64,000 nucleotides of DNA, from NCBI GenBank assembly GCA_038316145.1, contig JBBQAH010000001.1:10322-74321 (forward strand), in the 5' to 3' direction. The position numbers were made by a program, and so were the translations under genes. The stretch is from Burkholderiales bacterium (GTDB lineage: Bacteria; Pseudomonadota; Gammaproteobacteria; Burkholderiales; Burkholderiaceae_C). Positions 22,144 through 36,785 of the stretch are shown one piece after another (position 1 is the stretch's first letter; every line of letters begins with the position of its first letter). The notes under the pieces are model-generated. The model ran no database searches. It was not told the origin of the DNA and was given only the letters and a program-made list of their open reading frames with translations.

Positions 22144-22159
22144 GGGAACGGAGTTTGCC
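22144..22159 (+). promoter_or_regulatory. Putative sigma-54 -24/-12 site
   Basis: GGGAACGGAGTTTGCC (GG-N10-GC), ~40 nt upstream of ATG 22200. Confidence 0.5.
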
Positions 22160-22199
22160 CCTGCTTGGGCTCACTGACTTTCTTCAACGGAGATATCCC

Positions 22200-22877
22200 A
22201 TGGCACAAGACAGCACCAACAGCGGCTCGAACTACGGCATGAGCGGCCCGGGTCCAAGGACCGACACCACCGCAGGATCAACCACCGGCATCAACCCAGG
22301 CAGCGGCATCGGCAGCAGCACGACGGCCGGCAGCACGGGCATCACCGAAAACAACGACCGCTACCTGACCGGCCTGTTCCCGGACCGCGACAGCGCCGAA
22401 CGCGCTTACCAGGGCGTGGTCGACCGTGGCTACAAGTCTGACGACATCAACCTGGTGATGTCCGACGACACGCGCAAGCGCCACTTCAGCGGTGACAGCA
22501 CCCTGGGTGGCCGCGAGACCGAGCTCGGCAACAAGGCGGCCGAAGGTGCTGGCATCGGCGCTGGCATCGGTGGTGCGCTCGGCGCCATCGCAGCAGCGGT
22601 TGCTGCGGTCGGTACGAGCCTCGTGTTGCCGGGCCTGGGCCTCGTTATTGCCGGACCGATCGCCGCGGCGTTGGCCGGCGCCGGTGCCGGTGGCGCGGCC
22701 GGCAGTCTGGTGGGGGCGCTGGTTGGCTGGAACATCCCTGAAGAGCGCATCAAGGACTATGAAGACGGCATCAAGAACGGTGGCATCCTGATGGGTTTGC
22801 GCCCAAAGACCGACGTTGACGCGACCGAACTTGAACAGCATTGGCGCGGCGCCAACGGGCAGTCCGTCTCGCGCTGA
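22200..22877 (+). CDS. General-stress-type membrane protein with glycine-zipper region
   Basis: RBS GGAG; GLFPDRDSAERAY..RGY..DDINLVMSD..GNKAAEGAGIG..LVGWNIPEERIKDYEDGIKNGGILM. Confidence 0.85.
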   Translation: MAQDSTNSGSNYGMSGPGPRTDTTAGSTTGINPGSGIGSSTTAGSTGITENNDRYLTGLFPDRDSAERAYQGVVDRGYKSDDINLVMSDDTRKRHFSGDSTLGGRETELGNKAAEGAGIGAGIGGALGAIAAAVAAVGTSLVLPGLGLVIAGPIAAALAGAGAGGAAGSLVGALVGWNIPEERIKDYEDGIKNGGILMGLRPKTDVDATELEQHWRGANGQSVSR

Positions 22878-25976: not shown

Positions 25977-26354
25977 ATGAACACTTCCCAGATCCTCATC
26001 GCCGTCGCAAGCGTCTCCGCACTTGTGGGTGTTGTCAGTTTTGCTGACGCCCAAACCTCTGACTCGGGGCAGCGCGCGACGACTTCAGGCGCGACGACGA
26101 TGCCCAGCGACACGAGGCCGAACACCAGCCCATCGGCGCCGATGCCTGGCTCGACCATGCCAGCGGCCGGCAACAACACCGCGACCCGGAACAACGGCAA
26201 CATGCCGAACAACGGCTCGATGTCTGACAGGGGGGCGAACGTGAACAGTCGCACCGGGGCTTCGGGCATGGATTCGTCCACCCGCACGCCGACGACCGGT
26301 ACCGACGGCAGCAGCACGCCGACGGAACGCGCGGCGAGGATGGACCGAGGCTGA
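25977..26354 (+). CDS. Small secreted low-complexity protein with C-terminal TERAARMDRG motif
   Basis: RBS AAGGAA; Sec signal ending SFADA; T/S/P/N/M-rich disordered body. Confidence 0.85.
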   Translation: MNTSQILIAVASVSALVGVVSFADAQTSDSGQRATTSGATTMPSDTRPNTSPSAPMPGSTMPAAGNNTATRNNGNMPNNGSMSDRGANVNSRTGASGMDSSTRTPTTGTDGSSTPTERAARMDRG

Positions 26355-26428
26355 CAGACAGGCCACCTGTACTCCGCGCCCGCACCGTTCTGGATAGTCC
26401 CGCGCTATGCCCGAAAAGCGGCTTGGAT

Positions 26429-27106
26429 CTACGCCGGTTGCCTGGTCTTCGCGGCCAGCAGCCGGCCCTGTTGAAAGCCGCCAGACTCGGGCATGATGTA
26501 GACCAGCCCACGATGGCGCCCCAGCAGGGGTGCGACGACGGCGTCGTAAAAGGCCTCGGGTACCACGACGCAGCCCGCCGACAGACGTCGTCCCCGTGCA
26601 TCATCAGACGCGAGGCGGGTGGCGCGCAAAGCTCTCGACGCGCCCGGCCGCAAGCGGTGGATGGCCAGGGCGATTCCATAGTCGATCCAGACGATAGGCT
26701 CGCCATTGCTGTTTCGGCCCGGCTCGGATTCAAATCGGCCAGCAGGTGTTGTGAGGTCCTCTGGGCGCAGGGCTTGATGCTGTGTGCGCCTGCCGACGCC
26801 GGCCGCTGACGTGTCGCCCAGCGTCTTCCCGAGCAGCACCGCTGATGCGCCCACCAAAGTGCCGTCCGCGGCGTACAACACGATCATTGCCGACCGCTTG
26901 TCCACGATGGCGAAGGGCCGGCCCTGGTGGTCAGCATGGCTGCTCACCCAGCGGGCCAATAGACGGGCATCCTGCGGCAAAGCAGCCCCATCGGCAGCCA
27001 TCGCCACCACAGCAGGCCGAGGTTGCGGCGAGGCCTGGACGCCCGATGGCCGAACCCATGCGACTACCAGACACAGTGACAACCGTCCCAGACTCGCAAC
27101 CCGCAT
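26429..27106 (-). CDS. L,D-transpeptidase-like (YkuD-fold) secreted protein
   Basis: Signal peptide; FAIVDK..VLLG..TTPAGRF..VWIDY..AIHRL..RLSAGCVVVP (catalytic His and Cys). Confidence 0.82.
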   Translation of the reverse strand: MRVASLGRLSLCLVVAWVRPSGVQASPQPRPAVVAMAADGAALPQDARLLARWVSSHADHQGRPFAIVDKRSAMIVLYAADGTLVGASAVLLGKTLGDTSAAGVGRRTQHQALRPEDLTTPAGRFESEPGRNSNGEPIVWIDYGIALAIHRLRPGASRALRATRLASDDARGRRLSAGCVVVPEAFYDAVVAPLLGRHRGLVYIMPESGGFQQGRLLAAKTRQPA

Positions 27107-27293
27107 TCCGCACCCGGCCTCTGCCCAACCTGCCTCAACTTGACAGGTGACCAGAGGTCGCTGCCGTCTCGCTCAAGAGCAGCCCGCGACGGGCCGATTG
27201 GCAAAACGATCGTAGTGCCACGCCAAGCGGCCCATCCTGCGATGAGCCGGGCAAAAACGTGTCGGCTCGGGCCGGCGCGTGCCGGCCTGGCTG

Positions 27294-27596
27294 TCAGTTG
27301 CGGTCGGCGCGGGGTGCGCGCTCGGTCATCATGTTGTCGGACATGTTGGCGTTGGAGGATGAAGCCACCACGGTGGACGGTGTTGTCGTCATCACCGGGG
27401 CGCCAGTGGCCATGGGCATGGGTGTGGGCATTGCGGTCGTCACGGGTTCGGGTTGCTGAACGATGGGTGCGGCTGCAACCGGTTTCATGGGTTCCTGCAT
27501 GTGCATGGCGCGATCAGCGCGGTTCGCGGCGCAGCCGGCAGCCAGACCGACGGCGACGAAGGCCGCGGAGAGAAAGGCGATTCTTGGGGTGTTCAT
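27294..27596 (-). CDS. Small lipoprotein, low complexity, with C-terminal TERAPRADRN motif
   Basis: RBS AAGGAA; lipobox LAAGC; P/T/M-rich linker. Confidence 0.85.
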   Translation of the reverse strand: MNTPRIAFLSAAFVAVGLAAGCAANRADRAMHMQEPMKPVAAAPIVQQPEPVTTAMPTPMPMATGAPVMTTTPSTVVASSSNANMSDNMMTERAPRADRN

Positions 27597-27693
27597 GGTC
27601 AAGTTCCTTCGGCAGGTGCCGGGCATTGCAGCGCGGCGGAGGTGGGCCGCAGCAGCGGCAGGACCACCAGACTGCCCCTGTTGGATGTTGGCG

Positions 27694-27712
27694 TCTGTAC
27701 ACCAACGCACGC
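27694..27712. promoter_or_regulatory. Crp-variant palindrome
   Basis: TCTGTAC-ACCAAC-GCACG, ~100 nt upstream of the 27596 start. Confidence 0.55.
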
Positions 27713-27746
27713 TGTGGCGCAAACGGCCCAGGGCCTCTCAGGCCCC

Positions 27747-28523
27747 CTATTTCGAAGCGCTATTGGGCAGACCGGCCAAACCGGGGAAGACCGCAAGCAG
27801 CGGGTGTTCGTCGGGCAAGATGTAGATGATGACCTTGGCCCCATTGGCCACCGGGGGGTAGACCAGCGCGTCGAAGAACGCGGCAGGCACATTGATGCAG
27901 CCGCTAGAGATGCGCTTGTCTTCGACGCTGTCCGAAGCCAGCCTTTCGAGGCGACGCTCGGCAGGGTTGCTGGTCAATACACGGTGCATCGATACGGCGG
28001 CGTCATAGTCGACCCACACCACCCCTTCGCCGCGCAGGTTATGGCCTCGTTCGGCGAGAAAACGGCCTGCTGGCGTGGTGCGTTCTTCGGGCCGGATGTC
28101 GGCCAGCTTGCGTGAGCCGATGCCCGGCGCCGAGACGTCGCCCAGCGCCAAGCCGAGCAGCACCTTGCTGGCCCCTTCCAGCCTGCCCCGGCCGTTGAAC
28201 ACCAGCAGGCGCGCCCGAGGCTTGTCGACGATGAAGAAAGGCGCACCCCCGTGGTCGGACGAGCCGACGATCCAGTTGGCGAGGCGCCGCTGGTCAGGCG
28301 TGGGCTGTTCATGCCCGAAGTCGGCTGGTGGCGCCGCCAGTGGCTGGGCAATGCTGATGGCATCGAGTTGGGGCGGTTTCGGGGTTGGGTAGCCTGAGCG
28401 CCCCATCACTGCCCAAATGGCAGCTGCTGCTCCCACTGTGAGTGCAGCGCCGAGTGCCGCGCTGATCGCCATGCGGGCCACCCGATTTGCAGGCCGCTTC
28501 ATGACGACCGCTCCAGCGGGCAT
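27747..28523 (-). CDS. L,D-transpeptidase-like (YkuD-fold) membrane-anchored protein
   Basis: N-terminal TM helix; FFIVDK..TTPAGRF..VWVDYD..SMHRV..RISSGCINVP; paralog of 26429..27106. Confidence 0.85.
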   Translation of the reverse strand: MPAGAVVMKRPANRVARMAISAALGAALTVGAAAAIWAVMGRSGYPTPKPPQLDAISIAQPLAAPPADFGHEQPTPDQRRLANWIVGSSDHGGAPFFIVDKPRARLLVFNGRGRLEGASKVLLGLALGDVSAPGIGSRKLADIRPEERTTPAGRFLAERGHNLRGEGVVWVDYDAAVSMHRVLTSNPAERRLERLASDSVEDKRISSGCINVPAAFFDALVYPPVANGAKVIIYILPDEHPLLAVFPGLAGLPNSASK

Positions 28524-35681: not shown

Positions 35682-36041
35682 CCAGCCGGCCTGCCCGCAA
35701 CCTTGTTGATCCGCTGTGTGCCACGCACACCGGTCGCCACGTTGCGGCCGTCACACCGTGGACACGTCAACCGAAAGGTCAATGGCGTGGCAGAGCCTCG
35801 GGCGGCCCTTGTCAGTTGTCTCCCGCAATGCGGACGGCACGCAGTCCTACGTCTTTCGGGGGCACTTCCTTATCCCAGCTCGGTTTGCGCTGAACGACGA
35901 TTCGTTCATTCCGTTGCGTGCACAGTCCCATGTGTCACCCCACCAATTTGTCCGGCAACAACTTCCCTGGGGTTCACCACTTCACGGGTGCGCAAGGCTT
36001 CCATGTTCGGCGGCCCGTACGCCTCTCTGTCAGGAGCTTTT

Positions 36042-36785
36042 ATGCCATTTGCCGCCACAGCATCCAGGGATGAATTCAATCGGGCGCGCGTCCCCGCCAG
36101 CACCCCGAGCGTAAACCCGCGCTCACTGCTCAGCGCGGTCTCATGGGGTGTGATCGCAGCGGGCGCCGCTTCGGCCGCTGCGTTGTCTTTGATTCTGCTG
36201 ATTCTGGGCGTCGGGCTGGGGCTGTCGTCTGTCTCGCCTTGGGCAAGCAGCGGTATCAGCGCGGGCTCGTTCGGTGTTTCGACGATCCTGTGGCTGACGC
36301 TGACACAACTGCTCGCATCGGCGATGGGCGGCTACCTTGCCGTCCGGCTGCGGACAAAGTGGACCGAGGTTTACAACGATGAGGTCTATTTCCGCGATAC
36401 CGCGCACGGCTTCCTCGCTTGGGCCGTAGCAACCTTGGCGACAGCGGCACTGCTGACATCGGTGATCGGCTTGATCGTGAGCGGCGGCGTGCAAGCAGGC
36501 GCCGCAGCGGCAGGCGGTGCGGCCGGCACTGCGACTTCAGTGGTGGGCGGCGCCGCTGTGTCCGCAGCCCTGCTGCAGGGCAACGACGCCGGACCCATGG
36601 GCTACTTCGTCGATTCGCTGTTCCGCCGCGATCCAGCATCTGCCACTGCTGCCACTGCTGCCACGCCGGGCGCCGCCGCCACCAGCGATGCCACCGAGCG
36701 TTTGTCCAGCAGGGACGCGGCCGAAGTCAGCCGCATCGTGGCAAGTCTCGCAGCAACCCACGGTGGCAGGCGTCGGGACGCCTGA
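36042..36785 (+). CDS. Conserved membrane protein, probably with an in-frame C-terminal deletion
   Basis: SAVSWG..GLGLSSVSPW..GGYLA..YFRDTAHGFLAWA..YFVDSLFR, jumping to the terminal VASLAATHGGRRRD. Confidence 0.8.
   Translation: MPFAATASRDEFNRARVPASTPSVNPRSLLSAVSWGVIAAGAASAAALSLILLILGVGLGLSSVSPWASSGISAGSFGVSTILWLTLTQLLASAMGGYLAVRLRTKWTEVYNDEVYFRDTAHGFLAWAVATLATAALLTSVIGLIVSGGVQAGAAAAGGAAGTATSVVGGAAVSAALLQGNDAGPMGYFVDSLFRRDPASATAATAATPGAAATSDATERLSSRDAAEVSRIVASLAATHGGRRRDA

Follow-up and report, generated by a model that had tools for sequence, protein, structure and literature searches.

We describe here an enzyme clade of the YkuD fold and a short C-terminal arginine tail on exported proteins, which lie together at one locus in a 64,000-nucleotide stretch of DNA from a Burkholderiales bacterium (assembly GCA_038316145.1, contig JBBQAH010000001.1, positions 10,322 to 74,321 of the forward strand; hereafter the window). 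The pair of enzyme and signal is real, widespread and apparently undescribed, given that no description of the tail, of its letter strings or of the clade was found in the open literature, in a search where subscription journals were mostly absent and supplements lay outside; the clade is unnamed. Judged from the encoded proteins, the tail is portable and is found on five classes of substrate beside one enzyme clade in Pseudomonadota and Thermodesulfobacteriota. The pair is probably a new sorting system, or at least a new form of L,D-transpeptidase (LDT) tethering, and covalent linkage of the tail proteins to the wall is fairly probable. In its widest form, for which we judge the case evenly balanced, the proposal is that of a widespread Gram-negative equivalent of sortase, in which a YkuD-fold clade would work in reversed LDT orientation with the C-terminal Arg-[Asn/Gly/His] as acyl donor, and a portable tag of about five residues would direct adhesins, barrels, Lpp-like lipoproteins and disordered periplasmic chains to peptidoglycan, serving as the equivalent of Braun's lipoprotein in part of the Xanthomonadaceae.

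The locus had previously been described in a sequence-only reading as four open reading frames (ORFs) that encode two tail-bearing exported proteins and two paralogous YkuD-type His/Cys enzymes, and all of these are present:

25977..26354 (+), P0001, exported low-complexity (T/S/A/G/N) protein of 125 amino acids with a Sec-type signal, no Lys anywhere and a C-terminal Arg tail
26322..26354 (+), tail of P0001, TERAARMDRG plus stop
26429..27106 (-), P0003, YkuD-like enzyme of 225 amino acids with His150/Cys179, in the second-copy subclade of the family tree
27294..27596 (-), P0002, predicted lipoprotein of 100 amino acids with lipobox LAAG-C22, an A/P/M/T-rich body and a C-terminal Arg tail
27294..27326 (-), tail of P0002, TERAPRADRN plus stop
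27747..28502 (-), P0004, YkuD-fold enzyme of 251 amino acids with an N-terminal hydrophobic export or anchor segment
27984-27986 (-), catalytic His173 of P0004
27897-27899 (-), catalytic Cys202 of P0004

The order on the minus strand is P0004 enzyme, P0002 lipoprotein and P0003 enzyme, with P0001 convergent from the plus strand. The gene of P0004 was confirmed, and its start was moved from the upstream ATG at 28523 to 28502, which has GGAG 8 nucleotides upstream and gives the form present in the protein collection. P0003 and P0004 are 46% identical over 164 amino acids and are the sole members of the enzyme family in their own genome, which is 67% complete, and among the 159,959 stop-terminated frames of that genome only P0001 and P0002 matched the motif. 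All 30 bins of the region were covered, with few substitutions, by contigs from an independent 2017 run, and the main near-identical contigs of that run had no insertion or deletion there. Searches of P0001 and P0002 against Pfam and NCBIfam gave no named family for either, and a promoter scan at the locus was not informative. The single Lys of P0002 is residue 38, and a partial copy of the motif, NRADR, follows just after its lipobox Cys (window 27510-27524, minus strand). Both small genes have GAAGGAACTT in common immediately before their start codons (upstream of 25977 on the plus strand and of 27596 on the minus strand).

The linkage between motif and LDT clade, which the sequence-only reading had named as a check of its proposal, was found to be tight across genomes, in several families and two phyla. 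The genomes are related and hence not independent, and the samples overlap, so that counts are reported with no P values. A signal-bearing protein ending in [RQ]xDR[NG] was present within 1.5 kb in 24 of the 29 best relative loci. At 80 further loci, which are the best 80 of 588 confirmed and come partly from the same genomes, an end of the type [RKQP]xDR[NG] was found within 1 kb of the enzyme in 58, and with tail variants included an exported x-x-R-[N/G/H] protein stood beside the enzyme in 71 (one ORF counted among these, at L145, looks broken); in four of the other nine loci the enzyme lies at a contig end. Only 3 of 11,586 distant ORF ends carried [RKQP]xDR[NG], and five control endings gave no near matches. 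In the taxonomic family of the window, 82 of the 92 enzyme-positive genomes showed a tail protein on reading. The 209 enzyme-negative genomes were searched with the DNA pattern [RQH][APST]DRN-stop, which leaves out other tail variants and TAG stops, and the 37 matches, in 33 genomes, were all read: 35 were non-coding or shadow frames, one was TrpF-like and one was LdtD-like, and none was an exported low-complexity protein. Tail proteins far from any enzyme gene were seen in ten genomes, all of them enzyme-positive, which indicates that the link between tail and enzyme is more than operon proximity. The LdtD/YcbB-type protein (YkuD, Scaffold and PG_binding_1 domains; L050:1501-3018 of G169, where the clade was not found) ends in RPDRN, possibly by chance.

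The tail had been noticed on disordered proteins, and it proved to extend well beyond them. The first class is that of the window itself, in which both Sec proteins and lipoproteins have a disordered body. The second consists of coiled-coil lipoproteins resembling Lpp/OprI, for which the matches to Pfam LPP and to NF040598 are both below cut-off. That the motif is conserved in homologs was borne out here: all of the 120 Lpp-like homologs listed, out of 963 found, end in R-x-P-R-G, 81 of them have no Lys in the last ten residues, and none has a Lys in the last three. In family f15 (Xanthomonadaceae, going by homolog names), where the enzyme occurs in 50 of 121 genomes (one, G772, was counted only), an Lpp-like gene was present in 46 of 120 scored genomes and lay directly upstream of the enzyme in 45 of these 46, the exception being at a contig end. 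Three of the five enzyme-positive genomes of this family without an Lpp-like gene have a TpsA-type or Pro-rich tail gene instead, G802 showed no tail gene and G772 lay outside the reading. In family f48, with the enzyme in 25 of 201 genomes, a gene ending R[N/H], either Lpp-like or TpsA-like, was upstream of the enzyme at 27 of 28 loci.

The third class comprises barrels of the OmpA type, whose linker is rich in Pro (median fraction 0.44). When the barrel alone was used as query, 117 of the 120 homologs listed had Arg at the penultimate position (-2) and for none of the 120 was the OmpA wall-binding domain listed; the barrels align to positions 10-221 of the 358 of OmpA. The fourth class consists of TpsA adhesins with TPS, ESPR, YDG, MBG or collagen domains. 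Homologs of these were compared in 41 proteins from 40 loci, of which nine ran off the locus and were dropped; the tail was present in none of the 15 complete homologs from enzyme-negative genomes and in one of the 17 unlinked homologs from enzyme-positive genomes. One enzyme-negative adhesin (L392:5585-6844, G085) ends in an OmpA-family wall-binding domain (PF00691) after its YDG repeats. The fifth class, from Thermodesulfobacteriota and one unclassified delta-proteobacterial genome, contains small Pro-rich lipoproteins and Gly/Tyr-rich exported proteins. Gly/Tyr/His-rich exported tail proteins without a Pfam match lie beside the enzyme in Syntrophobacteraceae and Desulfarculales (L148, L180, L183). 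In the Lpp-like, OmpA-type and TpsA classes the tail has the position of the wall anchor in known relatives, namely the Lys end of Lpp, the periplasmic domain of OmpA and the periplasmic end of the two-partner secretion adhesin CdrA, and from this we infer that the wall is the target.

Across the classes, the consensus of the tail is a basic or Pro-rich run followed by [R/K/Q]-x-[D/G/P/A]-R-[N/G/H] (rarely Ser) and then the stop codon, at which the motif ends in all 128 tails listed. The sequence-only reading had given the signal as TERA[AP]RxDR[GN]; the C-terminal signal stands, and its length and fixity do not, since in the tails as read the one fixed position is the penultimate Arg and the other positions vary. 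A filter blind to the motif (signal-like N-terminus, low-complexity end, near the enzyme) returned 91 proteins, of which 87 had Arg at -2, 85 had Asp at -3 and 85 had Asn or Gly at -1. As a control, the same filter gave Arg at -2 in 4 of 19 proteins in the own genome, and at distance in one of five, that one being itself a tail protein. Co-variation of tail position -3 with the Arg or Pro that follows the catalytic His in the enzyme was considered and rejected as a rule: PR[G/N] tails occur mostly with His-Pro enzymes, yet His-Pro was found with DR[N/G] tails too.

Sequence searches placed the enzymes in no family. Both scored below threshold for Pfam PF03734 (YkuD; 15 bits against a gathering cut-off of 23.4, E about 0.035), NCBIfam gave no family, and a sequence search of the PDB, solved LDTs included, gave no match with either a single sequence or a profile. 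An AlphaFold2 model of P0004 had a mean predicted local distance difference test score (pLDDT) of 85.7, with about 97 in the core, and when it was searched against 48,161 chains the top 20 matches were all LDT/YkuD-type entries, a result with which Foldseek agrees. The best match had a Z score of 12.2 and a root-mean-square deviation of 2.4 over 125 residues. The Z scores were 12.2 for Csd6, 11.9 for the M. smegmatis LDT, 11.9 for Ldtfm, 11.8 for Pgp2, 9.1 for DpaA and 9.0 for LdtGo2, where differences under 1 are ties and uninformative on function, and sequence identities to the structural matches were 12-20%. Despite the sub-threshold Pfam score, the fold is YkuD according to the model-based structure search. 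In an alignment of 251 clade sequences the catalytic motif was conserved as His in 251, Cys in 250, Ser/Thr in 251 and Gly in 251; Arg147, Arg184, Arg197 and Lys94 were also invariant, and Asp93 and Asp122 nearly so. The sole Cys-to-Ser enzyme (L334:3463-4251) is from G183, a genome where no tail protein was found.

The family is large: it comprises 6,208 of the 7,997 proteins scored as candidates, and at 50% identity it is represented by 491 clusters (E up to 1e-30). Its occurrence is patchy, with the enzyme in 92 of 301 genomes of the window's family and, at a looser cut-off, in 16 of 401 genomes across the phylum; taxa represented among the named loci are Burkholderiales, Thiobacillus, Pseudomonas, Syntrophobacteraceae and Desulfuromonadales, among others. 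P0003 falls inside a subclade of 50 rows (support 98) that holds mostly second copies, and P0004 falls outside it, in a family tree used for topology only, whose group labels misassigned many Lpp-like and some TpsA loci. Many genomes carry two paralogs from different subclades. Seven of 302 enzymes themselves end in R[N/G/H] (L126, L257, L262, L265, L177, L201 and L210), four of the seven in family f15, which may mean self-tethering. When a natural enzyme ending in its own RPARH was folded, the tail had a pLDDT of about 67 and formed no strand, an uninformative outcome.

The leading mechanism is the Lys-free, sortase-like donor that had already been suggested from the window, and we give it about even credence. 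Substrate and enzyme would both reach the periplasm, where the free C-terminus would mimic the donor end of meso-diaminopimelate (mDAP)-D-Ala, with Arg in place of mDAP and the small last residue in place of D-Ala. The Cys would form an acyl-enzyme at the Arg with release of Asn, Gly or His, and the side-chain amine of mDAP would resolve it. The enzyme may thus cleave the tail after Arg, drop the last residue and transfer the protein to mDAP, which would be sortase-like chemistry on an LDT fold; from the sequences at hand we judge this about as probable as all other courses together. The pattern expected of a donor is seen in the tail, where position -2 is always long and basic and position -1 is small, variable and has a free carboxylate. 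Given that P0001 has no Lys, that most tails have no Lys nearby and that the N-termini of lipoproteins are acylated, an acceptor amine appears to be missing, which likewise argues for a donor. LDTs are described as cutting the donor bond just before the terminal residue, and their activity is defined by the L-D bond broken, that of mDAP-D-Ala in wall tetrapeptides (PMC12729407, cited here and below from its accessible part). Under this scheme P0002 would be a flexible membrane-to-wall tether and P0001 a disordered chain grafted to the wall; the proposal that P0001 too is a membrane-to-wall tether was dropped, since soluble Sec substrates have no membrane anchor.

Several observations weigh against the donor mechanism. 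Stereochemistry raises the main objection, since Arg-Asn and Arg-His are bonds of the L-L type, Asn, His and Ser being L-residues, and Gly is the only last residue with a direct fit. Of the 92 enzyme-positive genomes, 10 gave no tail protein, although several of these are 99-100% complete; a tail-profile search of 10 genomes added a single unlinked substrate, from G265, with nothing in the remaining nine. Only one of 20 second-copy enzyme loci had a neighbour with a DR[N/G]-type tail. In G080 a Lys forms the end of the lipoprotein whose gene directly precedes that of the enzyme, and the top structural matches include Csd6 and Pgp2, which we take to be carboxypeptidases, tied with transpeptidases. 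The G265 substrate is a small exported protein (L341:1495-2370) that ends in RPARADRG and has two Cys and an apparently folded body with no Pfam match; the G080 protein is a small low-complexity lipoprotein (L131:6532-6804), and G080 as a whole gave no Arg tail.

The stereochemical problem would not arise if the tail were a non-covalent docking or regulatory ligand of the enzyme or the wall, with the enzyme cross-linking the wall in the ordinary way or retaining the protein in the periplasm. Docking would account for the linkage, the fixed Arg and the free C-terminus, and it fits the ten genomes without a tail protein as well as the seven enzymes that carry the ending themselves. We nevertheless consider it unlikely, given that a tail acting without the enzyme ought to turn up in enzyme-negative genomes, where none was seen, that large adhesins and barrels are improbable regulators of one small enzyme, and that 250 of 251 sequences retain both Cys and His.

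In a conventional LDT reaction, a wall tetrapeptide would acylate the enzyme and the tail would act as acceptor; the amine would come from a Lys close by or from the side chain of the Arg, either unchanged or converted to ornithine. Guanidinium is a poor nucleophile, and the neighbourhoods of the pairs showed no modifying gene that recurs, although no systematic search was made. A Lys lies within the last ten residues of 34 of the 128 tails and at the end of the G080 neighbour, as would suit an acceptor, whereas P0001 has none at all and the same stretch is free of Lys in 94 of the 128 tails. That the LDT protein tethers described all use the protein as acceptor (PMC12729407) speaks for this possibility, which we still regard as very unlikely.

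The enzyme could also process the tail away from the wall, by trimming the last residue, by freeing a tethered protein or by transferring the protein to a lipid amine or another protein. Carboxypeptidases belong to the YkuD family, as does DpaA, an amidase that detaches Lpp (PMC12729407), and Csd6, Pgp2 and DpaA are among the structural matches, with the reservation made above that such ties say nothing on function. The two paralogs from different subclades in many genomes could likewise be one that attaches and one that detaches. The replacement of wall-binding modules by the tail in OmpA-, Lpp- and TpsA-type proteins points to the wall, and off-wall processing is judged to be quite unlikely.

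The locus lies within an island that, from its gene content, we take to be of the general-stress type:

20404-40811, island with sigma-54, a transglycosylase-associated protein, a polyhydroxybutyrate-depolymerase-like esterase, a ribbon-helix-helix regulator and an alpha/beta hydrolase
20404-40811, further genes of the same island: a predicted lipoprotein plus DUF4331, DUF421, LigD, Ku and a long catalase
22155-22877 and 35703-36785, ORFs of the island without a Pfam match

Judged by these neighbours, the small proteins may be stress-induced, as the sequence-only reading suggested. Such surroundings (sigma-54, LigD, Ku, catalase, the transglycosylase-associated protein and DUF4331) would suit simple co-location, in which the genes of tail and enzyme lie in one stress island or operon and their products have nothing to do with each other. 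This is extremely improbable when identical terminal residues occur on five unrelated protein classes beside one enzyme clade in two phyla, and when adhesin homologs from genomes in which no enzyme was found are tailless.

It is hard to see a tail as an acceptor when it has no Lys and its one fixed residue is the penultimate Arg, which would mean that LDT chemistry or the logic of anchoring is wider than described. The pair is a candidate answer to the question of how many Burkholderiales and Xanthomonadaceae and some Thermodesulfobacteriota tie the outer membrane and two-partner adhesins to the wall. A two-gene unit of an 87-amino-acid lipoprotein and the enzyme makes the system directly testable, and a five-residue tag with a soluble ligase could serve protein engineering.

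The pair shares features with several known systems. LdtGo2, the 1,3-LD-transpeptidase of Gluconobacter, resembles the clade in being a divergent YkuD-like enzyme with an overlapping host range, and has homologs in Burkholderiaceae and Comamonadaceae (PMC12729407; bioRxiv 10.1101/2023.10.31.564931, the latter also in part). It gave no sequence match to the clade with a single sequence or a profile, its Z score of 9.0 at 17% identity is below those of several other LDTs, and the accessible part of the preprint describes no tail-bearing partner for it (bioRxiv 10.1101/2023.10.31.564931). Membership of the clade in LdtGo2/YkuD_2 was unsupported, since PF13645 gave nothing at E up to 1 and the sequence search of the PDB was likewise empty; Atlas YkuD_2 clusters scored only 0.82-0.83. 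The tail-bearing adhesins have the same domain types as CdrA of the CdrA/CdrB system, a two-partner adhesin with MBG repeats that is held at its C-terminus in the pore by a cysteine hook (PMC7616799, accessible part); in place of the hook they have a Pro-rich linker and an Arg tail, and they adjoin a transpeptidase gene.

LDT-linked barrels held to the wall are described for Coxiella BbpA/B (N-terminal Gly-Gly) and Legionella Lpg1810 (Lys-Thr) (PMC12729407). In contrast to these, the tail sits at the C-terminus after a Pro-rich linker, requires no Lys and is also present on lipoproteins with a blocked N-terminus. A free N-terminal Gly or Ala acceptor on a barrel does not apply to the window substrates, which are not barrels, or to the Lpp-like class, which consists, like P0002, of predicted lipoproteins. 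The tethering of Lpp and OutB (LdtA-C in E. coli; Ldt03/Ldt84 in Dickeya) likewise combines a YkuD enzyme with a short C-terminal signal, which can be common to unrelated proteins (PMC12729407), and one substrate class here is itself Lpp/OprI-like (NF040598, below cut-off). Those signals end in an acceptor Lys, whereas the tails here have a fixed penultimate Arg and mostly no Lys; a C-terminal acceptor Lys is lacking in the Lpp-like homologs, P0001 and P0002. In gamma-proteobacterial LDT tethers the acceptor is a Lys or the N-terminal amine of the protein (PMC12729407).

The logic proposed for the pair is that of Sortase A and LPXTG, in which a Cys transpeptidase cuts a C-terminal signal and moves the protein to a wall amine (PMC13721041, accessible part). 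The pair differs from it in the diderm hosts and in a motif that ends at the stop codon with no hydrophobic segment or basic tail after it. The enzyme model matches the YkuD fold, and no sortase was among the fold-search matches listed, a listing that excludes nothing. The pair thus has a partial likeness to Lpp-type tethering and to sortase systems, but lacks the sequence features by which either is defined.

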